Below are positions 13,083 through 32,688 of a DNA stretch of 64,000 nt, in pieces. A program made the position numbers and the translations under genes. A model generated the notes under the pieces. It was not told where the DNA came from, made no database searches, and saw nothing but the letters and a program-made list of their open reading frames with translations. This stretch comes from an uncultured Chloroflexia bacterium. GTDB taxonomy: Bacteria > Chloroflexota > Limnocylindria > Limnocylindrales > CSP1-4. The stretch is from NCBI GenBank assembly GCA_963713975.1, contig OY970218.1, forward strand, positions 2,016,001 to 2,080,000. The letters run 5' to 3'. Numbering within the stretch: the first letter of the stretch is position 1; each line of letters begins with the position of its first letter.

Positions 13083-13099
13083 GCACCAGGGAGACCGTC

Positions 13100-14661: not shown

Positions 14662-14701
14662 TTGACAGGTGCGGTATCGTGTCGTGTGTTACCGATAACA
14701 C
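14662..14701 (+). promoter_or_regulatory. Promoter -35 box plus LacI-type palindromic operator of the fucose operon
   Basis: TTGACA at 14662-14667; GTGTTAcCGaTAACAC palindrome with central CG at 14686-14701, overlapping the expected -10. Confidence 0.75.
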
Positions 14702-14744
14702 CTCGCTCCCGAACGACTCACGGTCCCACCCTATGAGGAGCCCG

Positions 14745-16259: not shown

Positions 16260-16305
16260 GCACCATCGACCCCCAACGGCCCACCACCCCGCACGAGGCA
16301 ATCCG

Positions 16306-17292: not shown

Positions 17293-17393
17293 CACCAGGC
17301 CCTCGGGCCCCAACCATCCGGACCAAGCGCCGGTCGGCCGACCTCCTTGGCGGCCCCGGCACCAAGGTCAAGCACCCTTCACGGAGGAGGAGC

Positions 17394-18389
17394 ATGAAGC
17401 TCACAGGGATCATCCGCCCGGCGGCGGCACTCATGGCAGTCGGCATCCTCGTTGCGGCCTGCGGCGGCAGCAGCAGCTCGCCCGCGGCATCCGCCGAAGC
17501 CAGCGCTGCGACCGGCGAGGCACCCTACATCGCGATCGTGTCCAAGGGCTCGCAGCACCAGTTCTGGCAGGCTGTCCAGAAGGGCGCTGTCGACGAGGCC
17601 GCGAAGCTTGGCGCGACCGTCACGTACGAGGGCCCGGCATCGGAGTCAGAGGTCGACAAGCAGCTCACCATGCTGCAGACGGCACTCGACAAGAAGCCGG
17701 CCGCGATCTGCTTCGCCGCGCTCGACAGCAAGGCCGCGACGCCGCTGCTCGAGAAGGCCAAGGCTGCCGGCATCCCGGTCGTCGGGTTCGACTCCGGCGT
17801 TGACAGCGAAATCCCGGTCACAACCGTGACCACCGACAACGCCAAGGCTGCCGGCGAGGCCGCCGACCAGATGGCGAAGCTCATCGGCGATAGCGGCAAG
17901 GTGGCGGTCATCGTTCATGACCAGACCTCCAAGACCGGCCAGGACCGCCGCGACGGCTTCGTCAACCAGATCGAGGCCGCGCACCCCAACATCGAGGTCG
18001 TGGCGATCGAGTACGGCGCCGGCGACCCGGTGAAGTCGGCTGACTTCGCCAAGGCCATCATGACCGCCAACCCGGACCTCAAGGGCTTCTTCGGCGCCAA
18101 CGAGGGCTCCATCAAGGGCGTGCTGAACGCGCTGAAGGAGACCGGCAAGGAGGGCGAGATCGTGGCCATCGGCTACGACTCCGGCCAGCAGCAGATCGAC
18201 GCCATCAACGACGGCACCGAGGCCGGCGCCATCACCCAGAACCCCGTCGGCATCGGCGCCAAGTGCGTCTCGGCGGCGTTGGACGCCATCGCGGGCAAGT
18301 CGATGGACAAGATCATCGATACCGGCTTCTACTGGTACGACAAGACCAACATCAACAATCCTGAGATCCAGGCGGTCCTCTACCAGTAG
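17394..18389 (+). CDS. Sugar ABC transporter substrate-binding lipoprotein (probably fucose/L-galactose-type)
   Basis: ATG after GGAGGAGGAG; lipobox VAAC; SKG.QHQFWQAV, FDSG, TDN, GANEGS and TQNP. Substrate inferred from the fucU/fucI context. Confidence 0.85.
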   Translation: MKLTGIIRPAAALMAVGILVAACGGSSSSPAASAEASAATGEAPYIAIVSKGSQHQFWQAVQKGAVDEAAKLGATVTYEGPASESEVDKQLTMLQTALDKKPAAICFAALDSKAATPLLEKAKAAGIPVVGFDSGVDSEIPVTTVTTDNAKAAGEAADQMAKLIGDSGKVAVIVHDQTSKTGQDRRDGFVNQIEAAHPNIEVVAIEYGAGDPVKSADFAKAIMTANPDLKGFFGANEGSIKGVLNALKETGKEGEIVAIGYDSGQQQIDAINDGTEAGAITQNPVGIGAKCVSAALDAIAGKSMDKIIDTGFYWYDKTNINNPEIQAVLYQ

Positions 18390-18420
18390 GCCACCCGGCT
18401 CCCTGAGCACGGTCGTACCC

Positions 18421-18455
18421 GCCGGGGGCTGTCCGCACCGCGGACAGCCCCCGGC
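18421..18455 (+). terminator. Perfect 16-bp stem-loop after the SBP gene
   Basis: GCCGGGGGCTGTCCGC-ACC-GCGGACAGCCCCCGGC. Confidence 0.7.
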
Positions 18456-18497
18456 CTCCATCAGGCCCAGCCAGTCGCCCACCTGGACTCCCCAACA

Positions 18498-19556
18498 ATG
18501 AGCAACATCAACGACGTTGCGAAGCGCGCCGGTTTGTCCGCCATGACCGTCTCGAGGGTCGTCAACGGCACCGGGTACACCAGCTCCGATGCCCGTGCCC
18601 GCGTGGAGGCGGCCATCGAGGAGCTGGGCTACGTGCCCAATGCCCTGGCCCGCCAGCTCCGGTCCAAGCGCACCAAGACCATCGCGCTCGTCGTCTCCGA
18701 CATCTCGAACCCCTTCTTCACCACCATCGCCCGCGGCGTCGAGGACGTGGCAGCGGCGCATGGCTTCTCGGTGATGTACTGCAACACCGACGAGTCCGAG
18801 GCAGAGGAGGAGCAGTACCTCCTCATGCTGATCGAGCGCCAGGTGGACGGCGTCCTGCTGGTCCCCGCGCGCAGCTCCGGCGCCTCGTTCCGTCTCCTCC
18901 AGGCCCACCGCATGCCGGTCGTCGTCCTGGACCGCCGCGTGGCGGCCCGCGACGTGGACAGCGTCCGCTGCGACTCCGAGGCCGGCGCCCACGCGCTGAC
19001 CCGCCACCTCATCGGGCTCGGCCACCGGCGGATCGCCGTGCTGACCGGTCGCCGCAACGTCTCGACGTCGGTCGACCGTGTCGCCGGGTGCCGGCGAGCC
19101 CTCCAGGAGACGGGGCTGGTGCTGGACGACGCACTGGTCCACTGGGGCGGCTTCAACTTCGGCAAGCTCAACCAGGCCGACGGGCACCGCATGGCCCAGG
19201 AGGTGCTGGCCACGGATGGCGATTGCCCGACCGCGCTGTTCTGCGCCAACAACTTCATCGCCTTCGGGGCGATCCGGGCGTTGCGCGAGGCCGGTCTGCG
19301 GGTTCCCGACGACATGTCCGTGGTCGCGTTTGACGACCTGCCGGAGGAGTGGGTGAGCGAGCCGTTCCTGACGGTCGCGGCCCAGCCGGCGTACGAGATC
19401 GGGCACCGCGCGGCCACCATCCTGCTCGGACAGCTCTCCGGCGACCTCCAGCCCGCGGGCGAGAACGTGATGCTGCCATTCGAGCTGATCATCCGGCGGT
19501 CGAGTGGGCCGCCCCGCGTCGTGCCCGCGAGCGCCATGACTGCGGCAATCGCGTGA
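18498..19556 (+). CDS. LacI-family transcriptional regulator
   Basis: DVAKRAGLSAMTVSRVVN HTH, YVPNALAR hinge and FDD. Confidence 0.93.
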   Translation: MSNINDVAKRAGLSAMTVSRVVNGTGYTSSDARARVEAAIEELGYVPNALARQLRSKRTKTIALVVSDISNPFFTTIARGVEDVAAAHGFSVMYCNTDESEAEEEQYLLMLIERQVDGVLLVPARSSGASFRLLQAHRMPVVVLDRRVAARDVDSVRCDSEAGAHALTRHLIGLGHRRIAVLTGRRNVSTSVDRVAGCRRALQETGLVLDDALVHWGGFNFGKLNQADGHRMAQEVLATDGDCPTALFCANNFIAFGAIRALREAGLRVPDDMSVVAFDDLPEEWVSEPFLTVAAQPAYEIGHRAATILLGQLSGDLQPAGENVMLPFELIIRRSSGPPRVVPASAMTAAIA

Positions 19557-19566
19557 AGGAGAACCC

Positions 19567-19986
19567 ATGCTGAAGACCCGCCTGCTCCACCCGGAGATCC
19601 TGCAAGCCCTGGGCGAGGCGGGTCACGGCGCGCAGGTCCTCATCGCGGATGGCAACTACCCGCTGGCGACGCGATCCAACCCCGATGCCCGCCGGGTGTT
19701 CCTCAACCTCGCGCCGGGGCAGCTCAGCGTTACCGACGTCCTCGACGTCATCGCGGATGCGATCCCTGTCGAGGCGGCCTATGTCATGGGCCCGGATGAC
19801 GGCACGGAGCCCTCCATCTACGCCGGCTTCCGCGAGCTGCTCCCGGACAACGAGCTCGAGCGCCTCGGTCGCTTCGAGTTCTACGACATGGCCCGCGGAC
19901 CGGACACGGCGCTGGCGATCGCCACGGGCGAGCAGCGCATCTACGCCAACATCCTGCTCACGATCGGCGTGGTGATGCCCGAGTAG
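19567..19986 (+). CDS. fucU: RbsD/FucU-family L-fucose mutarotase
   Basis: MLK, GHG..V.IADGNYP, RFEFY and ATGE...YANI; adjacent to fucI. Confidence 0.8.
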
Positions 19987-20054
19987 GGCGGCCACAGGAA
20001 GCAATCGAACCCGTCAAAGCATCGACTGGCGTCCCAGGAATCGAGGCAACCGAC

Positions 20055-21860
20055 ATGACCACCGTCAATACCACCGGACGTTTCGTGGGCGACTGGCCGC
20101 GGATCGGCATCCGTCCCGCCGTGGACGGCCGGATGCACGGCGTGCGCGAGTCGCTCGAGGAGCAGACACGGGCGATGGCCCTCCGGACCGCGGACCTGCT
20201 CCGGGCAAGCCTGCGGTACCCGGATGGGACGCCCGTGGAGGTCGTCGTCCCGGACCACAACATCGGTGGCGTGTACGAGGCGGCCAAGGTCGCCGAGCTG
20301 TTCCGCAAGGAGGGCGTGGGCGTCTCGATCACCATCACGCCCTGCTGGTGCTACGGCTCCGAGACGATGGACATGGACCCCCTGACGCCCAAGGCGGTCT
20401 GGGGCTTCAACGGCACCGAGCGCCCGGGCGCCGTGTACCTCGCCGCGGTGCTCGCCGCACACACCCAGAAGGGCCTCCCCGCGTTCGGGATCTACGGGCG
20501 CGACGTCCAGGACGCCAGCGATGGCACGATCCCGGACGACGTCGCGGTCAAGCTCCTGCGGTTCGCGAAGGCGGGGATGGCCGCCGCGATCCTGCGCGGC
20601 AAGTCGTACCTGTCCCTGGGCGGCGTGTCGATGGGCATCGCCGGGTCGATCGTGGACCAGCCGTTCTTCGAGAAGTACCTCGGCATGCGTGTCGAAGCCG
20701 TCGACATGTCCGAGATCTACCGCCGGCTCGAGGAGGAGATCTACGACCCGGTCGAGTTCGAGAAGGGCCTTGCCTGGGCCAAGACGAACTGCACCGAGGG
20801 TCGGGACATCAATGTCCCCGCGAAGCAGAAGACCCGCGAGGGGCTCGACGCCGACTGGGCCACGGTCGTCAAGATGTTCCTCATCGCGCGCGACCTGCTG
20901 GTGGGCAATCCGAGGCTTGCCGAGCTCGGGTTCCCCGAGGAGGCCCTGGGTCGCAACGCCATCCTGGGTGGCTTCCAGGGCCAGCGTCACTGGACCGACC
21001 ACAGCCCCAACGGCGACTTCATGGAGGCCATCCTCAACTCGTCGTTCGACTGGAACGGCATCCGGGCGCCGCACATGTTCGCCACCGAGAACGACTCGCT
21101 CAACGGCACGACGATGCTGCTGATGTACCTGCTGACCAATCGGGCCCAGATCTTCGCGGACGTCCGGACGTTCTGGAGCGCGGACGCGGTGGAGCGGGTC
21201 ACGGGCTACAAGCCCGACGGCCTGGCCTCCGACGGCTTCATCCACCTGATCAACTCCGGCGCGGCCACCCTCGATGCCACGGGCGCGATGACCGACGCGG
21301 ACGGCAAGCCTGCGATGAAGCCGTTCTGGGAGATCACCGAGGGCGATGTCGGGGCCGCGCTCGCGGCGACGACCTGGTACCCGGCGGACCGGGGCTACTT
21401 CCGGGGTGGCGGGTACTCCAGCCAGTTTGTGTCCAAGGGCGGTATGCCCGTGACCATGGCTCGCGTGAACCTCGTCAGCGGCGTTGGCCCCGTCCTCCAG
21501 ATCGCCGAGGGCTGGACCGTGGAGCTCCCCACAGAGGTCCACGACATCCTCGACCAGCGGACCAACCCCACCTGGCCGACCCACTGGTTCGTGCCGCGGA
21601 CCACGGGCATGGGCCCCTTCCGCGACGTCTACACCGTGATGGCCAACTGGGCCGCCAACCACGGCGCCATCAGCTACGGCCACATCGGTGCGGACCTGAT
21701 CAGCCTCGCCTCGGTCCTGCGGATCCCGGTCCACATGCACAACGTGCCGGAGGAGGACGTCTTCCGACCGTCCGCGTGGGCGAACCTGGGCACCGCCGAT
21801 CCCGAGGGCGCGGACTTCCGCGCCTGTGCCAACTTCGGTCCGCTGTACGGCCGCAAGTAG
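20055..21860 (+). CDS. fucI: L-fucose isomerase
   Basis: [53 protein letters not shown] and ANHG. Confidence 0.96.
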
Positions 21861-21934: not shown

Positions 21935-22957
21935 CTACGTGCCCGGAGACCCATCCGTGCCGAGCCGGCCCCCGCTCGATCGGCGCACCACGAGCTCCGT
22001 TGGCAGCACCTCGTCGCGGGTCGGTCCATCCGGGTCCGCCTGGCGCTCCAGGAGTACCGAGACGGCCCGTCGCCCGATCTCCGCGGCCGGCTGTGCGATC
22101 ACGGTCAGGAACGGGAAGGTGACCATCGCCCGGGGCAGGTCGTCGAAGCCCACGACAGCCACGTCGTCGGGGACCCGGAGCCCGAGCTCGTCGAGGGCGT
22201 GCAGGACGCCGATGGCGATGAAGTTGTTGGTTGCGAACAGCGCCGTCGGTGCCGGCTCACGCTGCATCGCGGCCAGGGCCATGTCGTGGCCGCTCTCGAT
22301 CGAGAAGGCGCCGTGGATGACGACGGGTTCGCCGAGCCCGGCCTCGTCCACCACGGCGCGGCGGAAGCCGGCGACCCGGTCGACCGCGGTGGGGACCGAC
22401 GCAGGTCCCGAGAGCACGGCGAGGTGCTGATGTCCGAGCCCGACGAGCAGTTGGCCGAGCTCGCGCGCCCCGCCCTCGGAGTCTGCCCGGACCACGTCCA
22501 CGTCCGCAGCCTGCGGTCGCCGGTCCACGACCACCAGCGGGACGCCACGGTCACGACACAGGCGCACGGTCCCTGCGCCGGTAGCGGCCGGCACGAGCAG
22601 CAGGCCGTCGACCTGTCGTTGCAGCAGCAGGGCGGCCAACCGCGCCTCCTCGTCCTCGCGTTCGTCACTGTTGGCCAGCAGCATCGAGATCCCCGCTTCT
22701 CGGGCCGCGGTCTCGACGCCCTGGGCGAGCGTGGTGAAGAACGGGTTCGTCATGTCCGGCAGGAGCAGCGCGATCGTGTCGGTCCGGTTCGTCCGCAGGT
22801 TTCGGGCCACGGTGTTCGGCATGTAGCCCGTCTCCGTGAGCGCCGCCTCCACCCGGGCCCGGAGCTTCGGGCTCACCGATCCGGACCCGTTGACCACCCG
22901 GGACACCGTCATGGGCGAGACGCCGGCCCGCCGTGCGACATCGGTCAGGTTCGCCAT
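21935..22957 (-). CDS. LacI-family transcriptional regulator (close paralog of 18498-19556)
   Basis: MANLTDVARRAGVSPMTVSRVVN; last gene of the epimerase-kinase-nucleotidyltransferase operon. Confidence 0.92.
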   Translation of the reverse strand: MANLTDVARRAGVSPMTVSRVVNGSGSVSPKLRARVEAALTETGYMPNTVARNLRTNRTDTIALLLPDMTNPFFTTLAQGVETAAREAGISMLLANSDEREDEEARLAALLLQRQVDGLLLVPAATGAGTVRLCRDRGVPLVVVDRRPQAADVDVVRADSEGGARELGQLLVGLGHQHLAVLSGPASVPTAVDRVAGFRRAVVDEAGLGEPVVIHGAFSIESGHDMALAAMQREPAPTALFATNNFIAIGVLHALDELGLRVPDDVAVVGFDDLPRAMVTFPFLTVIAQPAAEIGRRAVSVLLERQADPDGPTRDEVLPTELVVRRSSGGRLGTDGSPGT

Positions 22958-22961
22958 GACC

Positions 22962-23867
22962 CTAGAACCCCCGGAGCTTCGTGCTCGATCTTGCCGGCAG
23001 TCCCGCGTGCGGCAGGCGCTGGAGCACCACGTACTCGATACCGTGCTCGCGGCAGAAGTCGGCCTTCTCCGGCTGGTCGCCGTCCTCGTTGACGACATAG
23101 CGGGCGGGCCGGATCCTGGCGATCTCGGGCTCCGCGTCCATCCAGCCAGAGCCCGACGAGACGACACACTGGTGGACGCTGCGCACGGCGCCGACCATGT
23201 ACTGCCGCTCCTGCTCGCGCTGCAGCGGATGCCCCGGACCCTTGAGGAGCTCCACGTTCCGGTCACTGCCGACGACCGCGTACAGCGCGCCGTAGGCCGC
23301 GGCGTCCATGAAGAACCGGATGTGGCCCGAGTGCAGCCAGTCGTAGCAGCCGGTGATCACGACGCGTGGAATGTCGGCAGCTGGCGGCGTGGGATCGGGG
23401 ATCGGGAAGCCTGCGCGGTCCGATGGCGAGATCGTCCGATACGCGACGCCGCGCTCGCCAGCCGCGGCCCGGAGCCCCGCATCGTCGTCCTCGGTGCGGA
23501 CCACGAGCGTGGCCGCCCGGGCGGCAAGCATGTCCATGTCCTCGGCCACGGGCCGGTCGACGACCTCGACGCGCTCGACCCAGCGGATGGACTCCGCGAG
23601 GAACCGACGCTCGGCGACGGGGAAGGCGGGCGGCGAGCCCGTGACGGCGGCCAGGAGCGCATCGGACGGGACGCGGACATGGAGCGGACCCAGCGCGGCG
23701 GCCTCCTGGAGGAAGCGGACGTCACCGGAACGGAGGTTGTCCAGGCTCGCCTCGACGACCACGGGCGCGCGCTCAGGCGCGACCACGGGCGCGCGCTCAG
23801 GCGCGACCACGGGCGCGCGCTCAGGCGCGACCACGGGCGCGCGCTCAGGCGCGGGATCCGTCGTCAC
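22962..23867 (-). CDS. Tandem-domain cytidylyltransferase-like (HxGH) nucleotidyltransferase
   Basis: C-domain TGCYDWLHSGH..GSD..LKG..ER and terminal RSST. The N-domain is a degenerate copy (ASLDNLRSGD..SD..ER). GTG start overlaps the kinase stop (GTGA). Confidence 0.8.
   Translation of the reverse strand: MTTDPAPERAPVVAPERAPVVAPERAPVVAPERAPVVVEASLDNLRSGDVRFLQEAAALGPLHVRVPSDALLAAVTGSPPAFPVAERRFLAESIRWVERVEVVDRPVAEDMDMLAARAATLVVRTEDDDAGLRAAAGERGVAYRTISPSDRAGFPIPDPTPPAADIPRVVITGCYDWLHSGHIRFFMDAAAYGALYAVVGSDRNVELLKGPGHPLQREQERQYMVGAVRSVHQCVVSSGSGWMDAEPEIARIRPARYVVNEDGDQPEKADFCREHGIEYVVLQRLPHAGLPARSSTKLRGF
23756..23851. repeat. Perfect 24-bp tandem repeat x4 encoding (APERAPVV)4
   Basis: CGACCACGGGCGCGCGCTCAGGCG starting at 23756, 23780, 23804 and 23828. 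Confidence 0.95.
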
Positions 23868-24712
23868 GCGCGGCGCACCGCGATCCGCGCCGAACCTGCG
23901 GGCGGCTCCTCGGACGCCACGATCACGTAGCCGCCACCGCAGCCGGACAGCATCGCGCCGGCGTGCTCGGCGGCATAGGCGCCCACCAGGCCGAGGAGGT
24001 CGATGGTGATCGTGGGGTGCGCGTAGACCTGCGGCAGGAGGGCGTCCCAGGACCGGGTGCACTCGTTGAGCGACTCGCCGAGCGCCGGGAGGTCCATGGC
24101 CACGATCGCGTCGTAGCAGGCCTTCCCACTGGCGCTGAGGCGGGCCACCCACGCGGGATCAAGGCGCTTGTCCCCGAGCGGGCCGTAGCCCGGTGGGCGC
24201 TGCCCGATCGGGACCAGGTGGATGACCCGTTCCAGCCACGCTGCCACCGCGGGGTCCACGGTGGACTCAACGTGGGCCGGGAACCAGCCGCCATCCACGG
24301 TGGCGTCGTAGTCCAGCCGGCTGACGCCGGGGTAGATGAGCCCGCACATGTCCTGTGACCCGGAGGGCTCGATGAGATTGGCGTTCTCGGCCACGTAGAG
24401 CTCGCGGACCAGGCCGGCCGGCGCCCGGTTGGCCGGGAGGTAGTCACCCCACAGCGCCCTGGCGGCGGCCCTCGTGCCGGTCGCCATCCCGCAGCGGTCC
24501 ATGTAGCGGACCGTGGGCTCCAGCGAGACGACCACCATCGATCCCGGTGGCTCCGGGTTGATCGAGGACAGGAACGGCTGGTCGATCCAGCCCCCGGCCA
24601 TCTGCAGCCGGTAGGGCAGGGGACCGATCGCCCCCTCGAGAGCGGAGGGCATGCCGGTGGTCGGGGAGGTGGCGTTGGTCGGGGAGACTCCGCTCGTGGC
24701 CGACCCGGTCAT
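23864..24712 (-). CDS. Atypical GHMP-family sugar kinase (fucokinase/HddA-related)
   Basis: PYRLQMAGGWIDQP (motif I), SGSQD and LSGCGGGY (motif III); the GSGLGSS loop is replaced by RCGMATGT. Confidence 0.72.
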   Translation of the reverse strand: MTGSATSGVSPTNATSPTTGMPSALEGAIGPLPYRLQMAGGWIDQPFLSSINPEPPGSMVVVSLEPTVRYMDRCGMATGTRAAARALWGDYLPANRAPAGLVRELYVAENANLIEPSGSQDMCGLIYPGVSRLDYDATVDGGWFPAHVESTVDPAVAAWLERVIHLVPIGQRPPGYGPLGDKRLDPAWVARLSASGKACYDAIVAMDLPALGESLNECTRSWDALLPQVYAHPTITIDLLGLVGAYAAEHAGAMLSGCGGGYVIVASEEPPAGSARIAVRRA

Positions 24713-24717
24713 CGTCG

Positions 24718-25779
24718 TCAGCCCTCGACGACGCGCTTGCCGGCCTTGCGGTCGGCGTACTGGTCGGCGATCCAGGCATAGGTCTCGGCCATGCCGTCGC
24801 GGAGCGGCGTGTTGGGCTCCCAGCCCAGGACCTGCTGGATGAAGGTGTTGTCGCTGTTGCGGCCCGCGACGCCCTTGGGTGCATCCAGCTTGTAGGTGCG
24901 CTCCAGCTTCACGTCCGCGATCTCCTCGACCATCGAGACCAGCTCGTTGATCGAGACGAGCTCGCTGGAGCCCAGGTTGATCGGCGTGGCGATCAGGTCC
25001 GGGCTGTGCATGATCCGGTCGATGCCGTGGACGCAGTCGTCGATGTAGCAGAAGCTGCGGGTCTGGGTGCCGTCGCCCCAGATCTCGATCCGCATGTCGC
25101 CGCTGTCCTGGGCCTCGATCACCTTGCGGCACATGGCCGCCGGCGCCTTCTCGCGGCCACCGAACCAGGTGCCGTTGGGGCCGTAGATGTTGTGGAAGCG
25201 CGCGATGTGGGTCTCGAGACCGCGCTCCGCCCAGTACTCCTCGCAGAACATCTCGGAGATCAGCTTCTCCCAGCCGTAGCCGCGCTCGGCCATCGCCGGG
25301 TAGGCGTCGGACTCCTTGAGCGCGATCACCTCGGGCGTCTTCTGGAGGTCCGTGTTGTAGGCGCAGGCCGACGAGGAGAAGAAGTAGCGCGAGGCGCCGG
25401 CCCGGTAGGAGGCCTCGGTCAGGTGGGTGTTGACGAGGATGCTGCGCAGGCATTCGACGCGGAAGTTCTCGATGAAGCCCATGCCGCCCATGTCGGCCGC
25501 CAGGTTGTAGACCTCCACGGCACCCTTGACGGCGTCGATGGCGTTCTGCTCGTGGCTCAGGTCCATCGAGATGGACTCGACGCCCGGCACCCGCAGGTAC
25601 CAGTCCGGGAGGGGCTTGCGATCGATGGCCCGGATGTTGGTGTAGCCCTGCTCCGCGAAGTAGCGCGTCAGCGAGCCTGCGATGAAGCCGCCGGCGCCTG
25701 CGATGACGATCAGGTCGTCCTTGGCGAGGCCGCGGCTGACCGTCGTGCCGGGGATGGTGTCGTTGAACTCGGTCGTCAT
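24718..25779 (-). CDS. gme: GDP-mannose 3',5'-epimerase
   Basis: GAGGFI, LAADMGGMGFI, SSSAC (catalytic Cys), YGWEK, RFHNIYGP.GTW.GGREKAPAA (catalytic Lys), WGDG.QTRSF and GRNSDN, all GME signatures. Confidence 0.88.
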   Translation of the reverse strand: MTTEFNDTIPGTTVSRGLAKDDLIVIAGAGGFIAGSLTRYFAEQGYTNIRAIDRKPLPDWYLRVPGVESISMDLSHEQNAIDAVKGAVEVYNLAADMGGMGFIENFRVECLRSILVNTHLTEASYRAGASRYFFSSSACAYNTDLQKTPEVIALKESDAYPAMAERGYGWEKLISEMFCEEYWAERGLETHIARFHNIYGPNGTWFGGREKAPAAMCRKVIEAQDSGDMRIEIWGDGTQTRSFCYIDDCVHGIDRIMHSPDLIATPINLGSSELVSINELVSMVEEIADVKLERTYKLDAPKGVAGRNSDNTFIQQVLGWEPNTPLRDGMAETYAWIADQYADRKAGKRVVEG

Positions 25780-25845
25780 CGAGGTTCCTCTGGTCGGGTG
25801 CCAGGGGTCGAGCCCCGGGCGTCACTTCTGGTTTGTTTTCTCCTG

Positions 25846-25879
25846 TGGTAACGTTACCAAGCATTGCTCCAGTTGTCCA
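25846..25879 (-). promoter_or_regulatory. Promoter TGGACA-N17-TAACGT of the gme operon, overlapped by a perfect LacI-type operator
   Basis: -35 at 25879-25874 and -10 at 25856-25851; palindrome TGGTAACGTTACCA at 25846-25859 in the gme/manC divergent region. Confidence 0.8.
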
Positions 25880-25942
25880 TGCCTCAATTCCACCGGCTGC
25901 AGACCGACAGCCGGCCATCCACCAGGAACAGGCGGTGCACCG

Positions 25943-27091
25943 ATGTACGCAGTGATCCTCGCCGGCGGTGGAGGCACTCGCCTGTGGCCGCTCTCGCGCC
26001 CGGAACGACCGAAGCCGTTCCTGCCGCTGATCGGTGACCGGACGCTCCTCCAGCGGACGTGGGACCGGATCGTTCCGGAGCTGGTGGACGCGGGCGATGT
26101 GGCCGTGGTCACCGACCGCCGGTACGTGGGCATCGTCCGGGACCAGCTCCCGGACCTCCTCTCCGACATGCTCCTCGCGGAGCCCGTGGGGCGGAACACC
26201 GCGGCGGCGGTCGCGTTCGCGGCGGCTGCCCTCGAGCGCCCGGACGACGAGGTGATGCTCGTCCTGCCGGCCGACCACCTCGTCGCGGACGAGCCGGGGT
26301 TCCGGGACATCCTCCGGCGTGCGGCCACGCTCGCCGGACGGGCGGGTGCCGACGGCGGGCCCGGTCGTCTGGTCACCCTCGGCATCGCACCGGACGGTCC
26401 GGAGACCGGATACGGGTACATCGTGGCCGGCGACGAGATCCCCGGATCCGGGGCCGCGGTCGTCGTCTCCCGGTTCGTGGAGAAGCCGTCGGGCGCGAAC
26501 GCAGAGGCGATGCTCGCCGGCCCCGTCCCGGTCGCCTGGAACGCGGGCATCTTCCTGTGGCGGCGTGACGCGCTCCGGGCCGCGTTCGAGGCGGGCTCGC
26601 CCGACATCCTCGCGGACATAGGGGTCGGCGTCGCCGGTGGGGAAGCGGGGGGAGCAGCCGGCCTGGACGCCGCGTACGCCCGCGTCCGCCCGACCTCGAT
26701 CGACTACGCGGTTCTCGAGCCGGCTGCCGCGATGGGCGGCGTGGCGATGCTCAGCGCCGATGTCGGGTGGAGCGATCTCGGCAGCTGGAGCGCTCTCCGG
26801 GACGCCCTGCTTGCGCTCGCCGCGGACGGTGCCGGCGAGAGCGCGGCCCAGGGCGTCGTGGGCCGTGGCCCGCGCCGCGACATGGGTTCGCAGCGGACGC
26901 TGGTCCTGGCAGGCGATCGCCCGATCGTAACGATCGGGCTGCGGGACGTGATCGTGGTCGACGCCGGGGACGTGGTGCTGGTCGCCGCCGCCGACGCCTC
27001 GCAGCAGGTCAAGGTCGCGGCGGAGGCGTGGTCCGCGGCGGGCGGCGGCATCCGGGAGGCAGGCGGCGCGGCCGCGGAGGCGCGAAGATAG
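25943..27091 (+). CDS. manC: Mannose-1-phosphate guanylyltransferase
   Basis: VILAGG.GTRLWPLSR...PK, EP.GRNTA, PADH, PETGYGYI, FVEKP, WNAGIF, SIDYAVLE and GWSDLGSW. Confidence 0.92.
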   Translation: MYAVILAGGGGTRLWPLSRPERPKPFLPLIGDRTLLQRTWDRIVPELVDAGDVAVVTDRRYVGIVRDQLPDLLSDMLLAEPVGRNTAAAVAFAAAALERPDDEVMLVLPADHLVADEPGFRDILRRAATLAGRAGADGGPGRLVTLGIAPDGPETGYGYIVAGDEIPGSGAAVVVSRFVEKPSGANAEAMLAGPVPVAWNAGIFLWRRDALRAAFEAGSPDILADIGVGVAGGEAGGAAGLDAAYARVRPTSIDYAVLEPAAAMGGVAMLSADVGWSDLGSWSALRDALLALAADGAGESAAQGVVGRGPRRDMGSQRTLVLAGDRPIVTIGLRDVIVVDAGDVVLVAAADASQQVKVAAEAWSAAGGGIREAGGAAAEARR

Positions 27092-27149
27092 CGGGAGCGT
27101 CGCGATCAGGGACATGACGCGGCCAGCCACGGGACTCGCGGGAGGGGAC

Positions 27150-27992
27150 ATGCAGCTAAGCGACCGCAAGGTCTTCGCCCTCCTGGGCGAGGTGGTGGAC
27201 GGGAACCCCACCGAGGAGATGATCCAGGCCGCCTTCGGGGCGGTGGGGCTGCCGTGGAAATACGTCTCGATCCCGGTTCCGGCGGGGTCGTTCGAGGCGG
27301 CCTGGGCGGCCGCTCGCCGGCTGGGCTTCGCAGGCCTGAACGTCACCAAGCCGTACAAGATCGAGGCCGCCCGCCTCGCGGACCGCCTGACCCCCGCGGC
27401 GGCAGCGATGGGTGCCGTCAACTGCGTCTACCGCGAGGGCGCCGACCTCGTGGGCGACAACACGGATGGACGGGGGCTGGCCCGGGCCGTCGCCGATGTC
27501 CTCCGGATCGAAGGCACCTCCGTCATCGTGCTCGGCGCCGGCGGTGCGGCGCGGGCGGTCGCCGTGGAGCTGGCGTTCGCCGGCGCTCGCGAGATCGTGG
27601 TCGTGGCCCGTTCCGAGGCCGCCGGCCGCTCGCTGGTCGAGGCGATCACAGCCACCGGCACCGCGGCCCGGTTCGAGCCCTGGTCCGGGGTGGTGGCGGT
27701 TCCGGCGGGCTGTGACCTCCTCGTCAACGCGACGTCGGTCGGCATGTTCGACCCGGAGGAGCGACCGGCGGTGGACCTGTCGTCGGCGGGCACCGCGACG
27801 GTCGTCGCCGACGTGGTCATCGCCCCGAGGCCCACGTCCCTCCTCGCCGAGGCAGCCGGGCGGGGGCTCACGACCGTGCACGGGAACGAGATGCTGGTGC
27901 GCCAGGCGGCCATCGGGTTCGAGCTGTGGACCGGTCGCGAGGCGCCGCTGCCGGTTCTGCGGGCCACGCTGGCAGCCGCCCTGGACGGGTAG
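27150..27992 (+). CDS. Shikimate/quinate dehydrogenase-family protein (divergent substrate site)
   Basis: NVT.PYK, GAVN, NTDG, GAGGAA, NATSVGM and MLVRQA; ATG 27150 after GGAGG. Confidence 0.85.
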   Translation: MQLSDRKVFALLGEVVDGNPTEEMIQAAFGAVGLPWKYVSIPVPAGSFEAAWAAARRLGFAGLNVTKPYKIEAARLADRLTPAAAAMGAVNCVYREGADLVGDNTDGRGLARAVADVLRIEGTSVIVLGAGGAARAVAVELAFAGAREIVVVARSEAAGRSLVEAITATGTAARFEPWSGVVAVPAGCDLLVNATSVGMFDPEERPAVDLSSAGTATVVADVVIAPRPTSLLAEAAGRGLTTVHGNEMLVRQAAIGFELWTGREAPLPVLRATLAAALDG

Positions 27993-28056
27993 GTTCCGCC
28001 GTCGGCGGCTGGTGGACCGCGTCCGCATGACCCAATGGCGTGGGGTGCGCCGCTGG

Positions 28057-28186
28057 GAGGTTCAACCGTCGGGTCCGGTCCGGTTTGCGCCGCCTAGCGG
28101 CACGTCTGTCGGCTGGACCGGGCACGGGGAGCAACGAATGTGCCGCCTAGCGACTGAAACCTCGGTCCACCCAACAGTTGAACCTC
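28057..28186. mobile_element. 130-bp MITE/REP-like element with 49-bp imperfect inverted arms
   Basis: Both ends read GAGGTTCAACyGTyGGGT-N7-GGTTT..GyCGC..GCGGCACrT inward; the spacer is about 32 bp. Confidence 0.55.
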
Positions 28187-28239
28187 TGGGCGGCATGGAC
28201 CCCGGCCGCCCGGCGGGAGGTGCGTGCAGCGCAGGACCG

Positions 28240-29151
28240 CTAGGTCCCGGATGCCTCTCGCCGCAGCCGGCCGCCCACGTGGAACAGCAGCCAGTGGAGG
28301 AACGCGAAGTACAGGAACAACAGGAACAGCAGGATCGACCCGATGCTGATGAACAGGTTCATCGTGTTCGCCGTGTCTGCGACCTGCGTGCGCAGCTCCG
28401 CGAGCCGCGTCTGCGCTTCGCTGAGGACCGAGGTCACGTTCGTCAGGCCCGCCTGCACTGTCGCGGTCTTCTCGGCGACTACGGTGGCCACCTGCTGGAC
28501 GGGTCCGTCGGTGATCGCATTGCTGACGTCGGTGATCTTGCCGTCGATCTCCTGGACCTTCGCATCCACGGCGGTCAGCGCATCGATGGGGCCCTGCGGC
28601 ACCGTGAATCCCGGGATGAGCCGGTCGAGGACCTGGAGCCGGTCGAGGGCCGCCATCGCCGTGTCCCGGACCCCGCTGTACGACGTACGGAAGTCCTGGT
28701 AGCGGCTCTGCAGGTTCGAGAACTGGTCGCGGAGGCCACTCAGCAGCCCGGGCCCGGCGCTGGCGTCTGCGGCACGGGCGGCCAGGGAGTTGGCGGTGTC
28801 CGTCAGGACGCCGACGCGACCGTTGATCTCGGACACCTTCGCCGACGCGTTGTCGATCAGGGGCACCGCCTGGGCCATCTTGGCGTCGATCGTGCCCGAC
28901 ACGTCGTCAACGGTTGATACTGCCCAGCCTCGGCCGAGCAGCACCACCACAGCCAGCGCCAGGAACAGGACGATCCCGACGATCCCGGCGGTCTGCGCGC
29001 CGATGCCGAGGGCCTTGTTGCGCCTGCTCCGGGACGGGGCCGCTACGGGGTCGGTGGCGTCGGCGGCGACCAACTCAGCGGTGGGCGCGGCCGACTGCAC
29101 TGGTTCCGGCACAGGATCAGGCAGGGGTGACGTTTCCGTCTCGTCGGTCAT
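28240..29151 (-). CDS. Hypothetical membrane protein (two TM helices flanking an amphipathic/coiled-coil region)
   Basis: GAGGAG RBS; hydrophobic segments near both ends and a heptad-rich core. Confidence 0.7.
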   Translation of the reverse strand: MTDETETSPLPDPVPEPVQSAAPTAELVAADATDPVAAPSRSRRNKALGIGAQTAGIVGIVLFLALAVVVLLGRGWAVSTVDDVSGTIDAKMAQAVPLIDNASAKVSEINGRVGVLTDTANSLAARAADASAGPGLLSGLRDQFSNLQSRYQDFRTSYSGVRDTAMAALDRLQVLDRLIPGFTVPQGPIDALTAVDAKVQEIDGKITDVSNAITDGPVQQVATVVAEKTATVQAGLTNVTSVLSEAQTRLAELRTQVADTANTMNLFISIGSILLFLLFLYFAFLHWLLFHVGGRLRREASGT

Positions 29152-29330
29152 CGCTGATCTCCTCGTCAGAGTCGTGGGCCGCGCGGCGGCCTGCATGACG
29201 GCTGGGCCCCGATGCCGTCCACGGCGAGCCTACCGCACGATGCTGTCGCCGCATGCGCCGCACGGCGCTCGACGATGCGCCGCACGTGCAAGGATGAGGG
29301 CGCCCGGCAACCCTAGGCAGGAGGCAACCG

Positions 29331-30281
29331 ATGACGCAGACCAGCCTCGGCGTGCTGCTCTGGAGCCAGGCCACGGACTGGCCCGCGTTCGAAGCGGCCG
29401 CAACGCGAGCCGACGACCTCGGCTACGACCACCTGTGGGCCTGGGACCACCTGTATGCCATCTTCGGCGACCCGTACCAGCCGATCTTCGAGGGCTACAC
29501 GACGCTCGCGGCCTGGGCGAAGGTCACGCGGCGCGCCCGCCTCGGCCTGCTCGTCGGGGCCAACACGTTCCGCAACCCGGCCCTGGTCGCCAAGACGCTG
29601 GTGACCATCGACCACCTGAGCGACGGACGAGCGATCGCGGGCCTGGGTGGTGCCTGGTTCGATCTCGAGCACACCGCAACCGGCATCGATTTCGGAAGCG
29701 GGTTTGGCGAGCGGCTCGACTGGCTGGACGAGGCGGCCGGCTGCATGCGCGCCCTGTTCGAAGGCGCGGAGGTGACCTCGGCCCCAGGTGGCCACTACGC
29801 CCTGGATGCCTTCCGGCTGCTCCCGCCGCCGGTCCAGCCCCGTCTCCCGATCATGATCGGCGGGGCCGGGGAGCGCAAGACGCTGCGCACGGTGGCCCGC
29901 TATGCCGACATGTGGAACGCGATGGGCCCGGTCGACTTCCTGCGCCACAAGGTGGAGGTGCTCCGCCGCCACTGTGACGAGGTTGGGCGCGATTTCGGGG
30001 AGATCGAGCTCACGGCGGGCTGCAAGCCGGTCATCCGTGACACGGAGGCAGAGGCGGTCCGGGTCTGGGAAGCGCAGATGGCACACAACCGGACTCCGAT
30101 GTCCGAGGTCCTCGACGACGACACCTTCTGGGTGGGCACGCCCGAGCTGGTCGCCGGGCGGATGCTGGACCGCAAGGCCCTCGGCTTCCACACCTTCCTT
30201 GCCGAGATGGCGGCACCCTTCGACGCCGAGACCATGGAGCGCTGGATCAACGAGGTCCGTCCGATGGTGGACGGGGACTGA
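29331..30281 (+). CDS. LLM-class (luciferase-like) flavin/F420-dependent oxidoreductase
   Basis: WDH, E..T.LAA, RNPALVAK...T.DH.S.GR, G.GW...E and PIMIGG.GERKTLR.VA.YAD.WN. Confidence 0.88.
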   Translation: MTQTSLGVLLWSQATDWPAFEAAATRADDLGYDHLWAWDHLYAIFGDPYQPIFEGYTTLAAWAKVTRRARLGLLVGANTFRNPALVAKTLVTIDHLSDGRAIAGLGGAWFDLEHTATGIDFGSGFGERLDWLDEAAGCMRALFEGAEVTSAPGGHYALDAFRLLPPPVQPRLPIMIGGAGERKTLRTVARYADMWNAMGPVDFLRHKVEVLRRHCDEVGRDFGEIELTAGCKPVIRDTEAEAVRVWEAQMAHNRTPMSEVLDDDTFWVGTPELVAGRMLDRKALGFHTFLAEMAAPFDAETMERWINEVRPMVDGD

Positions 30282-30299
30282 GGTCGACGACGGGCGCCG

Positions 30300-30518
30300 G
30301 TGCCTCGCTGCACTCGTCAGCCAGGCCGTGAGATCGCGGGCCTCCAGCCGGCGCGGGCGGATGTCATCCTTGCCGGCGCCTGCGTCATCCGGGCCGTCAT
30401 GGAACGCCTGTGCAGGTCATCATTGGTGGTGAGCGATCAGGGCCTGCGGCACGGGGTGCTCGTGGACCGGTTCGGAGCTGACCCGACCCACGAGTCGAGG
30501 ATAGGAAGAGGTAGCTGA
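30300..30518 (+). pseudogene. ppx: 3' remnant of a Ppx/GppA exopolyphosphatase gene
   Basis: Only the C-terminal GLQPARADVILAGA....VM......VSDQGLRHG segment is present; there is no room for the N-terminal ~250 aa. Confidence 0.65.
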
Positions 30519-30637
30519 TGCGGCGCTTCGCGGTCGAGACGGTGGTCGACGGGCTGATCATCCTGGTGATCTTCCTGGTCATGGGCCTGTTCTCCGTCGC
30601 CCAGCCGTTCCCGTTCGGGCCGGAATTGCCCCCTTGA
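30518..30637 (+). other. Out-of-frame N-terminal 39 codons of the downstream ABC1 kinase (frameshift near 30626-30633)
   Basis: GGAAGAGG RBS + ATG; MRRFAVETVVDGLIILVIFLVMGLFSVAQPFPFGPELPP*; one added base would fuse it to 30634. Confidence 0.6.
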
Positions 30638-32688
30638 TCGAGCTCAAGGGCGTCGGTGTCGCAGCCTTCCTCGTTGCGGCGGCCATCCTGGTCCTGGGCC
30701 AGCGCTACGTGCGGCCGATGATCGTGGCGTTCACCGGCCGGCTCCTGCTGTCGACGATGGGCCTGTTCCTTGTCATCGTGAACTACCTCGTCCTGTGGGT
30801 CGCCTCGCTGCTTGCGCCCGACCTTGCGATCGTCGCCCAGCCTGCGAGCCTGTGGCTCCTTGTGATTGCCATCCTGTACACGGTCCTCGGCACGGTGGCG
30901 GACGCCCTCCTAGGCCTGAACCGCCCCCACGTCCCGACAGCGGACAGCGACAAGCTGTGGCGCTTCCTCGAATCGCTGCCCACCCCGCGCCGGAACGTGA
31001 TCATCGAGAACCTCCGGCTCCAGCAGATCTACGACATGGTGTATGCGGTGGCCCTCGATTCGTCGCTGGCCAAGACGCCGATCGGGCCGTTCCGCATCTG
31101 GTTCGCCAGCCGCGTCCTCGGCGAGACCGACATCGTTGCCGATGCCACCGGACCGGAGCGGTTCCGGATGCTCCTCCAGCAGCTGGGCCCGACCTACGTG
31201 AAGATCGGCCAGATGATCGCCAGTCGTGGCGATGCGCTCCCGCCGGACCTGATCGAGGAGCTGTCCAAGCTCCAGAGTGACGCCGCGCCATTCCCGTGGG
31301 AAGACGCCCGCCAGATGATCCAGGACGAGCTGGGCAAGCCCCCCGAGGAGCTGTTCGCGACGATCGAGCACGAGCCGTTCGCGGCGGCGTCCACGGCCCA
31401 GGTCCACCGTGCCACCCTGCACGACGGGACGGTCGTCGCGGTGAAGGTCCAGCGGCCGCGCATCGTCGCCAAGACCAAGGCCGACCTGGGCGTGATCACC
31501 CAGCTCGCGCTGATCTCGGAGCGCCGTCTCGCCCTCGCGCGCAAGGTGGGCGTGGTGGGGATGGTCAACGAGTTCGCCGGGGGTGTCCTCAAGGAGCTGG
31601 ACTACCGCAACGAGGCGTACCACGCGAAGCGCCTCGCGGACAACATGGCGAAGTTCCCGGAGATCACGGTCCCACGCATCTACGATGACCTCTCGGCAGC
31701 GCGCGTCCTGACCATGGAGTTCATCGACGGGATCAAGATCTCCAAGACGGAGAAACTCCACGAGGCCGGCTTCGACACCGATGCGCTCGGCACGACGTTC
31801 ATCCGCGCGGTCATCAAGCAGGTCCTCATCGACGGCTTCTTCCACGGCGACCCGCACCCCGGCAACCTGCTCGCGGATCCCGCTGACAAGCGCCTCGTGT
31901 TCCTGGATATGGGGCTTGTCGGCCAGCTCGACTCATCGCAGCGGATGAACCTGCTCGGCCTCATCTATGCGCTCAAGGCGATCGATATCCCTGGGATCGC
32001 CGATGGCTTCATCGCCCTCGGCACGCCTGGCAGGCACTTCGACGAGGCGCAATTCCGCAGCGACGTTGACCGGCTTGCCCGCCAGTACCTCGTGTACGGG
32101 GCGGTGACGTCGGTCGGCGGGGCGATCTCGGGCTTCATGGGAGCGGTGTTCAACAACGGGCTGAGGCTTCACAGCAGCCTGACGCTGGCCATCAAGGCGA
32201 CGGTCCAGGCCGAGGAGACGGCGATCGCGCTCTCGCCCAAGGTGGACCTGGCAGATGCCGCCATGACCGAGGCGCGGGCCGCCCTGCTGGAGTCCCTGGA
32301 ACCGGACCGGGTCGCCCAGCAGGTGCAGCGCACGGCCGTCCGGGTGGGCAAGGAGCTCGCCCAGCGCGCCCCGTCACTGGAGAGCGCCGCCCTCAAGTGG
32401 CTGGACCTGTTCAACAAGGGCAAGATCGTCGTGGAGGTCGACACGTCGCAGCTGACCGTCGCCATCGAGAAGGTGGGCGGTCTCGGCAAGCAGGCGACGA
32501 CGGGCCTGATCGTGGTCGGCCAGCTCATCGGCACGGCAATCGCGATGATCATCCTGCTCCAGCCGGCGCTGAGCGACTTCGTCGGCCTGGCCTACGTGGC
32601 GATGATCGCCTTCGGCGTGACGCTGGTCGTGAGCTTCGTCGTCCTGTTCCGGATGCTGTTCGGCTCGGACGCCGAACCATCGGACTGA
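30634..32688 (+). CDS. ABC1/UbiB (AarF) atypical kinase with N-terminal holin-like membrane domain (true start probably 30518, frameshifted)
   Basis: LGPTYVKIGQ, AAASTAQVH, VAVKVQRP, ELDY.NEA, HGDPHPGN and DMG; TM helices at both ends. Confidence 0.85.
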   Translation: MIELKGVGVAAFLVAAAILVLGQRYVRPMIVAFTGRLLLSTMGLFLVIVNYLVLWVASLLAPDLAIVAQPASLWLLVIAILYTVLGTVADALLGLNRPHVPTADSDKLWRFLESLPTPRRNVIIENLRLQQIYDMVYAVALDSSLAKTPIGPFRIWFASRVLGETDIVADATGPERFRMLLQQLGPTYVKIGQMIASRGDALPPDLIEELSKLQSDAAPFPWEDARQMIQDELGKPPEELFATIEHEPFAAASTAQVHRATLHDGTVVAVKVQRPRIVAKTKADLGVITQLALISERRLALARKVGVVGMVNEFAGGVLKELDYRNEAYHAKRLADNMAKFPEITVPRIYDDLSAARVLTMEFIDGIKISKTEKLHEAGFDTDALGTTFIRAVIKQVLIDGFFHGDPHPGNLLADPADKRLVFLDMGLVGQLDSSQRMNLLGLIYALKAIDIPGIADGFIALGTPGRHFDEAQFRSDVDRLARQYLVYGAVTSVGGAISGFMGAVFNNGLRLHSSLTLAIKATVQAEETAIALSPKVDLADAAMTEARAALLESLEPDRVAQQVQRTAVRVGKELAQRAPSLESAALKWLDLFNKGKIVVEVDTSQLTVAIEKVGGLGKQATTGLIVVGQLIGTAIAMIILLQPALSDFVGLAYVAMIAFGVTLVVSFVVLFRMLFGSDAEPSD

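Follow-up and report, generated by a model that had tools for sequence, protein, structure and literature searches.

A candidate GDP-sugar route for L-galactose: a LacI-linked operon of epimerase, kinase and nucleotidyltransferase conserved in Chloroflexota and other bacteria

L-Galactose is a constituent of plant pectin (in rhamnogalacturonan II, RG-II), of some xyloglucans and of glycans from algae and invertebrates. Its catabolism by bacteria is presented only as oxidative in the sections of the source cited here, running by way of L-galactonate and D-tagaturonate to 2-keto-3-deoxygluconate (KDG) without nucleotide sugars (PMC12632266). Bacterial GME, the 3,5-epimerase of GDP-mannose, is likewise presented, in the cited sections of two papers, only in the synthesis of lipopolysaccharide (LPS) and of antibiotics (PMC6678494, PMC8787198), and the cited section of another reports that the Bacteroides fragilis enzyme FKP forms GDP-L-fucose and, less well, GDP-L-galactose from L-galactose in vitro (PMC11982464). 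The Leloir pathway, in its pyrophosphorylase (Isselbacher-type) form, consists of GalK, UDP-sugar pyrophosphorylase (USP), GalE and UDP-glucose pyrophosphorylase. Here we describe an operon that shares features with several of these systems, found in 64,000 nucleotides of DNA from an uncultured Chloroflexia bacterium (assembly GCA_963713975.1, contig OY970218.1, positions 2,016,001 to 2,080,000; this whole stretch is called the window below). In it a GME-like gene is followed by genes for a GHMP-like kinase, a nucleotidyltransferase with an HxGH motif and a LacI-type repressor, and a ManC-like gene is transcribed divergently. We consider it rather probable that the operon serves the sugar-inducible assimilation of L-galactose via GDP-sugars, a reading in which we infer the substrate, the nucleotide, the direction and the inducer. 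The initial annotation of the window knew of no published GDP-linked route of this kind, and our searches of open-access papers and preprints likewise brought up neither an L-galactose 1-kinase nor a bacterial L-galactose-1-phosphate guanylyltransferase, nor any catabolism of L-galactose that depends on GDP.

In the proposed route, glycosidases of the GH29 type would release L-galactose, fucose-type transporters would import it, and FucU would turn it into its beta-anomer. The GHMP-fold kinase would then phosphorylate L-galactose at C1, and the tandem HxGH transferase, or an FKP-type guanylyltransferase in other lineages, would use GTP to convert the resulting L-galactose-1-phosphate to GDP-L-galactose, which GME would epimerise at C3 and C5 to GDP-D-mannose. 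Mannose-1-phosphate would be freed either by ManC running in reverse with pyrophosphate or by a NUDIX hydrolase, and phosphomannomutase and phosphomannose isomerase (PMI) would carry it to fructose-6-phosphate. With a pyrophosphorylase at each end of the route, GTP and pyrophosphate would be recycled and each hexose would cost a net one ATP, the same as in the Leloir pathway. LacI is predicted to bind a single palindrome between gme and manC, from which it would probably be relieved by the sugar or by an intermediate. The initial annotation had set out the same course, from L-galactose through L-galactose-1-phosphate, GDP-L-galactose and GDP-mannose to mannose-1-phosphate; its logic of kinase, transferase and epimerase has been strengthened by the colinearity, gene fusions and FKP-type substitution described below, but the sugar, the nucleotide and the direction of flux stand only as we infer them.

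When the window epimerase was compared with solved structures, its match to Arabidopsis GME (2c59) had an E value of 6e-79, and the next family of short-chain dehydrogenases/reductases (SDRs), represented by MoeE5, followed at 5.7e-25. Eight catalytic or substrate-binding residues of GME are listed in the cited section of PMC8787198, and all of them (S143, C145, Y174, K178, N203, K217, R243 and R306) are kept in the window protein, as counted manually on the printed alignment with a chain offset of +2. They include the S/Y/K triad, the Cys145/Lys217 acid-base pair and Arg306, Arg243 and Asn203. Among the module loci considered below, GME is 68-95% identical across phyla. By family the window epimerase is a genuine GDP-mannose 3,5-epimerase, and the interconversion of GDP-sugars is its predicted activity.

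The kinase-like protein is assigned to no family in Pfam or NCBIfam, the model GHMP_kinases_C reaching only E 0.059 (14.2 bits, where the cut-off is 21), and although more than 6897 homologues were found, every named one among the 120 listed is a 'hypothetical protein'. Comparison with solved structures, by single sequence and by a 35-sequence profile, gave nothing significant, and the match to FKP (9iip, E 0.33) covers motif I only. An AlphaFold2 (AF2) model of moderate quality, with a mean predicted local distance difference test score (pLDDT) of 67 and a predicted template modelling score (pTM) of 0.71, was more informative. Its top Foldseek matches are the heptokinase WcbL (4usk, E 5e-6) and the FKP fucokinase domain (9iip, 1e-5), with a heptose kinase of B. 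thetaiotaomicron as a further match; the Foldseek probability is 1.00 for WcbL, FKP fucokinase, galactokinase and mevalonate kinase, at a template modelling score (TM) of about 0.5 and with the pLDDT just given. In the ESM Atlas, too, the closest clusters that carry a name are GHMP. As modelled, the protein has a GHMP fold and its best matches are anomeric sugar kinases. GGWIDQP, G-x-A-x-G-x-R, PSGxQDM and SGCGGGY are invariant motifs of the family. Set against what we take to be the GHMP consensus for motifs II and III, SGCGGGY is an invariant motif III, and motif II (GMATGTR) is atypical, with G75, A77, G79 and R81 invariant in 35 sequences. We propose the protein as an anomeric kinase for a hexose of L-fucose configuration, the candidate being L-galactose.

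The transferase scores 40.9 bits with the Pfam model CTP_transf_like (PF01467; cut-off 21), and its best NCBIfam model, rfaE_dom_II, gives 9.7e-17, which is under the cut-off of that model. It consists of two domains of cytidylyltransferase fold, the N-terminal one degenerate (RSGD, with the first His gone) and the C-terminal one retaining HSGH (HxGH) and RSSTxLRGF; H179, G181, H182, R293, S295 and T296 are invariant in an alignment of 24 sequences. Sequence matches were obtained to human ethanolamine-phosphate cytidylyltransferase (ECT, 3elb) and to HldC (5x9q). The AF2 model (pLDDT 90) aligns with human ECT across both domains at a Foldseek TM of 0.68, and single domains superpose on HldC, a heptose-1-phosphate adenylyltransferase, with 28% identity. 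We propose this tandem HxGH protein as a sugar-1-phosphate guanylyltransferase, a candidate use of GTP suggested by its linkage to GME and by the FKP-type protein that takes its place elsewhere. Directly after the GTGA overlap with the kinase gene, its 5' end carries a perfect tandem repeat encoding APERAPVV (Table 1), which is lacking in the 23 homologues aligned; given this position, the true start may lie downstream, or the repeat may be a recent expansion.

The three genes are linked across phyla. A scan of one genome per species gave 272 places with a member of the kinase family, and the best 80 of the 272 were studied, 43 of them labelled as Chloroflexota and 37 as others (by record title, the 80 comprise Chloroflexota, Verrucomicrobiota, Acidobacteriota, Planctomycetota, Alphaproteobacteria and Methylomirabilota). 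In 75 of the 80 loci the kinase gene has GME upstream on its own strand, immediately so in 72, and the transferase lies downstream of the kinase in 78, immediately so in 75. The trio is colinear in 74 loci, that is, in all 43 of the Chloroflexota-labelled and in 31 of the 37 others; the exceptions include one locus at a contig end (L059) and two without transferase (L055 and L076). Kinase and GME occur in exactly the same 8 of 41 relatives of the window genome. Across 301 sampled Chloroflexota genomes a kinase match was found in only 3, and within the phylum of a Verrucomicrobiae carrier (G339) in 36 of 301, six of these 36 being of the orthologue type (E <=1e-100). On this distribution the module is an accessory, patchily distributed unit.

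The open reading frames (ORFs) of all 80 loci were clustered, and recurrent clusters were named with Pfam and NCBIfam. In the 43 Chloroflexota-labelled loci the neighbours are LacI (39), FucU (15), FucI (13), ManC (13) and parts of ATP-binding cassette (ABC) transporters (7-15); the fucose-type genes adjacent to the module in the window recur in 13-15 of them. An aldo-keto reductase (AKR), an enzyme of the FAA-hydrolase family (FAH) and an SDR are present in 5-6 of the 43, and these look like an oxidative deoxy-sugar route. PMI-like ORFs occur in five, between transferase and lacI in L012, L021, L023 and L046 and after lacI in L018. The 37 other loci have a divergent AraC gene (11), a GH29 alpha-L-fucosidase (9), NUDIX (8), ManC (8), FucP (6, scoring above the TIGR00885 cut-off) and FucU (5), with the GH29 gene inserted within the trio in L062, L063, L081 and L082. 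The 115 neighbour ORFs scanned in 16 of the loci not labelled Chloroflexota (the first part of 259 ORFs selected from L054-L090) have no glycosyltransferase family among their 25 commonest. The co-occurrence analysis that the initial annotation had called for thus shows the trio together in 74 of 80 loci, with LacI alongside in 39 of 43 and ManC in 13 of 43 and 8 of 37.

These neighbours bear on the substrate. The genes for uptake, release and mutarotation point to a sugar of L-fucose configuration, and to nothing more specific. L-Galactose is favoured because GME acting on GDP-L-fucose would give a 6-deoxy-mannose nucleotide without an evident fate, whereas GDP-L-galactose would give GDP-mannose, and because the optional members of the module (the ManC paralogue, NUDIX and PMI-like proteins) are predicted to act on mannose nucleotides or mannose phosphates. 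Moreover, the separate L-fucose route in many of the loci, formed by FucI or by oxidative enzymes, suggests that the module handles the 6-hydroxy analogue.

Fusions and a second architecture provide a further line of evidence. A search for longer proteins found, at the level of orthologues, a fusion of kinase and transferase of about 537 amino acids and, in five clusters (P0123, P0136, P0137, P0140 and P0147), fusions of GME and kinase of about 528-632 amino acids. In another protein, P0124 (819 amino acids), the first 540 residues are matched by that part of B. fragilis FKP which acts as L-fucose-1-phosphate guanylyltransferase (5yys, E 2.7e-16), and the last 260, which are 61% identical to the window kinase, occupy the position of the fucokinase in FKP. 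A metagenome scan seeded with P0124 gave 79 loci, 40 of them with the FKP-type gene. GME lies immediately upstream of that gene in 30 of the 40, and in seven more the upstream sequence is too short to judge. The order in this second architecture is FucP, GH29, GME, FKP-type guanylyltransferase, FucU and kinase. One kinase family and one epimerase thus have either of two unrelated nucleotidyltransferases, HxGH or FKP-type, between them, and the FKP-type one is homologous to the enzyme that forms GDP-L-fucose and, less well, GDP-L-galactose. This alternation is the best available argument that the HxGH protein, too, would make a GDP-beta-L-hexose and that GME would act on this product. In L112 the order just given is extended upstream, with LacI, an SDR and a homologue of the amidohydrolase 4dlf preceding FucP. 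The SDR dehydrogenase and the 4dlf homologue (L112, 1992-3743) stand in the same operon as this module variant; if 4dlf is an L-fucono-1,5-lactonase, then an oxidative and a GDP route would share one operon here.

A distant, unannotated paralogue of the kinase, of about 385 amino acids, was seen in genomes of the Verrucomicrobiota phylum (L095-L106, for example L099, 5926-7077), where it accounts for 30 of the 36 kinase matches. All 12 paralogues fetched have a single HxGH domain fused to the kinase domain, with 30-34% identity. Scans of 68 of 77 selected neighbour ORFs (eight ORFs of L099 and ORF L097:3481-7056 being excluded, and L102 falling outside the selection) and, separately, of most genes of L099 identified GT4, GT2 and GT1 glycosyltransferases, sugar-nucleotide SDRs, GMD, Fcl and a flippase. 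The fused paralogue probably salvages sugar for glycan synthesis in the manner of FKP. In a tree of kinase domains with 142 rows, from which loci with short flanks or with a kinase match of less than 220 residues were excluded, it forms a separate clade with support 100; among the other rows, flanks could be scored in 131, and GME is in the locus in 116 of these. The glycosyltransferases seen around the paralogue show that the method detects biosynthetic loci; the GME-linked module is not in one. Homologues of the GT4 protein, flippase, GMD and Fcl of L099 are absent from the 80 loci. A setting among polysaccharide genes, which the initial annotation had named as grounds for abandoning its proposal, therefore holds solely for the distant fused paralogue and not for the orthologous module, and a catabolic rather than biosynthetic context is supported by the gene neighbourhoods. 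One locus of the kinase-transferase pair without adjacent GME, in Verrucomicrobiae (L086, 3234-7929), directly follows GH43, GH28 and pectinesterase/GDSL genes, a position behind pectin-acting genes that ties the pair to pectin breakdown.

Control of the operon appears to be local. The window LacI has the LacI helix-turn-helix (HTH) and Peripla_BP domains, and TGGTAACGTTACCA, which a repeat search did not list but which was read from the sequence and located by pattern search, forms a perfect palindrome of 14 bp; at its centre is the CG that is typical of LacI-family sites. It is the sole perfect copy in the genome of 3,624,741 bp, where one other site occurs at up to two mismatches. Since 0.40 chance hits are expected when the window is searched at up to three mismatches, the case for the operator rests on conservation: of the 43 Chloroflexota-labelled loci, 32 have a copy with 0-1 mismatch upstream of GME, and of the remaining 11, two end with their contig inside GME and several carry lacI upstream of GME. 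We regard the conserved palindrome, a predicted site, as the phylogenetic footprint of a dedicated, autoregulated local repressor. The promoter is less clear. A sigma-70 scan of the control region gave no promoter; by eye, the gme strand shows TGGACA and TAACGT separated by 17 nt, the latter lying inside the operator, and a TGGACA or TAGACA element at the same spacing is present in 12 of 33 aligned rows, other rows having TTGACA only 4-6 nt upstream of the operator. In either arrangement it is plausible that the operator overlaps the core promoter. Of the perfect LacI operator placed by the initial annotation on the -10 box of gme, the palindrome was confirmed but the -10 box is weak, with no sigma-70 hit and presence in 12 of 33 rows. 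Its broader claim of local, sugar-type regulation agrees with a dedicated LacI whose predicted operator is unique in the genome and conserved. A search for sequencing runs listed no RNA run, and the 12 DNA runs that it listed each contained 0.06 or less of the words.

The ManC-like protein has NTP_transferase and ManC beta-helix domains, both above the Pfam cut-offs, and scores 236 bits against the cut-off of 373 with TIGR01479, a model that includes a PMI domain missing here. ManC of the window type (at least 80% identity) was found among the 41 relatives in 3 of the 8 module-positive genomes, each time adjoining the module and nowhere else, and 40 of the 41, the 1.1-Mb genomes included, have a housekeeping ManC of about 46-55% identity. 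That the divergent ManC is the housekeeping gene is ruled out by the separate housekeeping ManC and by the module-only orthologues; from this distribution it is classed as a module-linked accessory paralogue. Elsewhere in the window genome a PGM/PMM-family gene lies beside the housekeeping ManC, and there is also a PMI-like gene. In two of the relatives a module gene, namely the module-linked ManC of G015 (C19:443660-444733) and the kinase gene of G007 (C19:76227-77062), matches in consecutive pieces, which suggests frameshifts, from module decay or assembly errors.

Genes in the window were called by analysis of G+C at third codon positions (GC3) by frame and by translation, because its G+C content is about 70%, and the features are collected in Table 1. 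The initial annotation had described an operon of gme, kinase, HxGH transferase and lacI with manC divergent from it, and the gene identities, coordinates and close packing all match. The ManC start is backed by an 85%-identical orthologue whose alignment begins at residue 1. The fucose operon that had been claimed beside the module was also identified (14598-21860). Directly before it is a complete L-rhamnose catabolic cluster (629-14317) with a fusion of RhaD-type aldolase and dehydrogenase, a DeoR regulator, an ABC transporter, RhaM, RhaB and RhaI. With rhamnose and fucose clusters adjoining the module, the region looks like an island for L-configured sugars of the plant wall. The stated absence of glycosyltransferases, flippases and gmd nearby was borne out among the ORFs scanned at 629-21860 and 27114-32688, where none was found. 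The genome has gmd-fcl homologues about 523 kb from the module, and these account for de novo synthesis of GDP-fucose.

Table 1. Positions of the module genes, control element, repeat and fucose-type neighbours within the window.
Feature	Position	Strand	Remarks
Sugar ABC transporter (ATPase, permease, binding protein)	14598-18389	+	
Second LacI gene	18498-19556	+	
FucU mutarotase gene	19567-19986	+	
FucI isomerase gene	20055-21860	+	
lacI	21935-22957	-	340 aa; ATG 4 nt past the transferase stop; last gene of the operon
HxGH transferase gene	22962-23867	-	301 aa; GTG start overlaps the kinase stop (GTGA)
Perfect 24-bp tandem repeat, 4.1 copies	23756-23853		In frame, 5' end of the transferase gene; APERAPVV x4
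GHMP-like kinase gene	23864-24712	-	282 aa; ATG 5 nt past the GME stop
GME-like gene	24718-25779	-	353 aa
Putative LacI-type operator TGGTAACGTTACCA	25846-25859		Distance to ATG: 67 nt (gme) and 84 nt (manC)
ManC-like gene	25943-27091	+	Divergent from gme, with a 163-bp spacer between

Several other explanations have to be weighed against assimilation of L-galactose. The most serious is salvage for biosynthesis, in which FKP-like kinase and transferase would make GDP-L-fucose, and also GDP-L-galactose, out of scavenged sugar for the cell's own glycans and GME would adjust the pool of GDP-mannose and GDP-L-galactose. The first two steps would equal FKP salvage, the FKP-type domain replaces the transferase in many loci, three FKP-type loci are without GME, the distant paralogue of kinase and transferase is clearly within glycan-synthesis loci, and the bacterial GME roles in the cited sections of the literature are biosynthetic (PMC6678494, PMC8787198). 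We nevertheless think this explanation unlikely: the 25 commonest of the neighbour families scanned contain no glycosyltransferase, the biosynthetic genes that mark L099 have no homologue in the 80 loci, the regulators are of the sugar type (LacI or AraC), the PMI-like, NUDIX and dedicated ManC proteins fit a flow towards mannose phosphates, and the window genome has gmd-fcl elsewhere. It would also leave unexplained why GME is the most tightly linked gene and why it is fused to the kinase. A reading in which the substrate is L-fucose, with GME turning GDP-L-fucose into GDP-6-deoxy-D-mannose (GDP-D-rhamnose) or a similar 6-deoxy sugar that is then broken down or exported into glycans, would account for the fact that all the linked genes of uptake and release are fucose-type (FucP, FucU, GH29 and FucI), and the mechanism of GME has no obvious need, as far as can be deduced, for the 6-hydroxyl. 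We hold it to be quite improbable, since D-rhamnose-1-phosphate has no known onward route and none is encoded nearby, PMI-like genes within the operon would be senseless for a 6-deoxy sugar, and the same loci often hold a separate L-fucose route, made up of FucI, of AKR and FAH, or of an SDR with the 4dlf-like amidohydrolase (oxidative-looking).

It is similarly improbable, in our estimate, that the module acts with another substrate and another nucleotide and that the SDR acts on the product of this reaction instead of a GDP-sugar; a heptose, hexose or polyol phosphate linked to ADP or CDP, in the way of HldE or TagD, would be an example. The best relatives of the catalytic domain of the transferase (RfaE-II/HldC, ECT and glycerol-3-phosphate cytidylyltransferase) and the top structural match of the kinase, a heptokinase, would fit such an activity; however, the epimerase retains, at its high identity across phyla, all the catalytic and diphosphate-binding residues specific to GME, a GDP-forming domain of FKP type stands in for the transferase beside GME, and neither GmhA nor GmhB is among the identified recurrent neighbour families. 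The GDP- and ADP-heptose pathways themselves (HddA/HddC and HldE) were considered and rejected, given the true GME, that same lack of GmhA and GmhB among identified recurrent neighbours and the fucose-type context. A variant within the GDP route, in which the HxGH protein would catalyse a GalT-like exchange with GDP-mannose as donor of GMP, seems less likely, since an FKP-type pyrophosphorylase substitutes for this protein.

Some observations nonetheless weigh against assimilation of L-galactose via GDP-sugars. The transport and glycosidase neighbours are all annotated for L-fucose, none specifically for L-galactose, and ManC, NUDIX and PMI are each found in a minority of loci. The closest characterised relatives of the transferase (ECT, glycerol-3-phosphate cytidylyltransferase and HldC/RfaE-II) use CTP or ATP, and we know of no guanylyltransferase of cytidylyltransferase fold. 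The phosphate-binding motif of the kinase is atypical, its model moderate and its structure profile searches non-significant. GME is not next to the kinase, despite room for it, in L058, L076, L080 and L086, nor is it present, again despite room, in the FKP-type loci L108, L110 and L111. Ten metagenome loci have kinase and transferase with neither GME nor a fucose gene within the stretch; these pairs (L159, L160, L163, L174, L176, L184, L185 and others) are 58% and 51-54% identical to those of the window, and their identifiable conserved neighbours are TldD/PmbA-like proteins and a radical-SAM protein. Such pairs may mean that kinase and transferase can function in a different context, or that they can rely on a GME gene located elsewhere.

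If assimilation of L-galactose by the GDP route is correct, it would be a second, ATP-cheap entry of this sugar to central metabolism, bacterial GME would gain a catabolic role and functions would be assigned to two large unannotated protein families. We see roughly even prospects for the widest form of the claim, in which the module represents an unrecognised route from L-hexose to D-hexose, with GME running 'backwards', in at least five phyla of soil and peat bacteria and in interchangeable architectures (HxGH- or FKP-type, split or fused), and supplies both the first sugar-1-phosphate guanylyltransferase of cytidylyltransferase fold and, in the 'hypothetical' kinase family, the L-galactose 1-kinase that had been missing in bacteria. 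For the enzymatic production of GDP-L-galactose and L-sugars the module would offer the parts needed, namely an L-hexose 1-kinase, a guanylyltransferase and a robust GME, and the pair of operator and repressor is a candidate biosensor for the inducing sugar.

How, then, does the module compare with the systems already described? It shares with the oxidative catabolism of L-galactose, known from Bacteroides vulgatus and from the lgu genes of Luteolibacter sp. LG18, the presumed nutrient and the Verrucomicrobiota, but none of the enzymes of that route is in the conserved trio. Nucleotide-heptose activation (HddA/HddC, or HldE as kinase with RfaE-II) likewise pairs or fuses a sugar kinase with a sugar-1-phosphate nucleotidyltransferase of HxGH fold, and its enzymes are the nearest relatives, in structure and sequence, of both module proteins; unlike the module, it is biosynthetic (LPS and S-layer), has heptoses as substrates, uses ADP or GDP, needs GmhA and GmhB, and is without GME or fucose-type transport genes. 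The Smirnoff-Wheeler pathway of plants has a GDP-mannose pyrophosphorylase of ManC type, a GME with the same catalytic residues, and GDP-L-galactose and L-galactose-1-phosphate as intermediates. However, plants run from mannose to L-galactose and on to ascorbate, using a HIT-family GDP-L-galactose phosphorylase and a phosphatase, whereas the direction proposed for the module is the reverse, with kinase and pyrophosphorylase. The order of events is also that of B. fragilis FKP salvage, where a GHMP kinase makes a beta-L-sugar-1-phosphate that is then guanylylated, and in P0124 and the 40 metagenome loci the module kinase family has as its partner a homologue of the guanylyltransferase domain of FKP. 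The differences are that FKP combines both activities in one fused protein, works for glycan synthesis and is not linked to a GME, and that in the window an unrelated tandem HxGH protein replaces the guanylyltransferase and the kinase is too divergent for a significant match (E 0.33).

With the Leloir pathway the module would have in common the succession of a GHMP-fold anomeric kinase, a nucleotidyltransferase and an SDR epimerase acting on the nucleotide sugar, as well as the freeing of a common hexose-1-phosphate, the recycling of the nucleotide and repression that responds to sugar. It would differ in using GDP instead of UDP, in a double epimerisation at C3 and C5, from L- to D-sugar, instead of one at C4, in a transferase of HxGH fold or FKP type instead of GalT (of the HIT family) or USP, in a kinase from an unannotated GHMP branch, and in its product, mannose-1-phosphate instead of glucose-1-phosphate. 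Searches with Pfam, NCBIfam and structure sequences gave no assignment of GalT or GalE type among the module proteins. The module resembles the Leloir pathway in its logic without being a member of it; as proposed, it is that logic transposed to GDP and a 3,5-epimerase.

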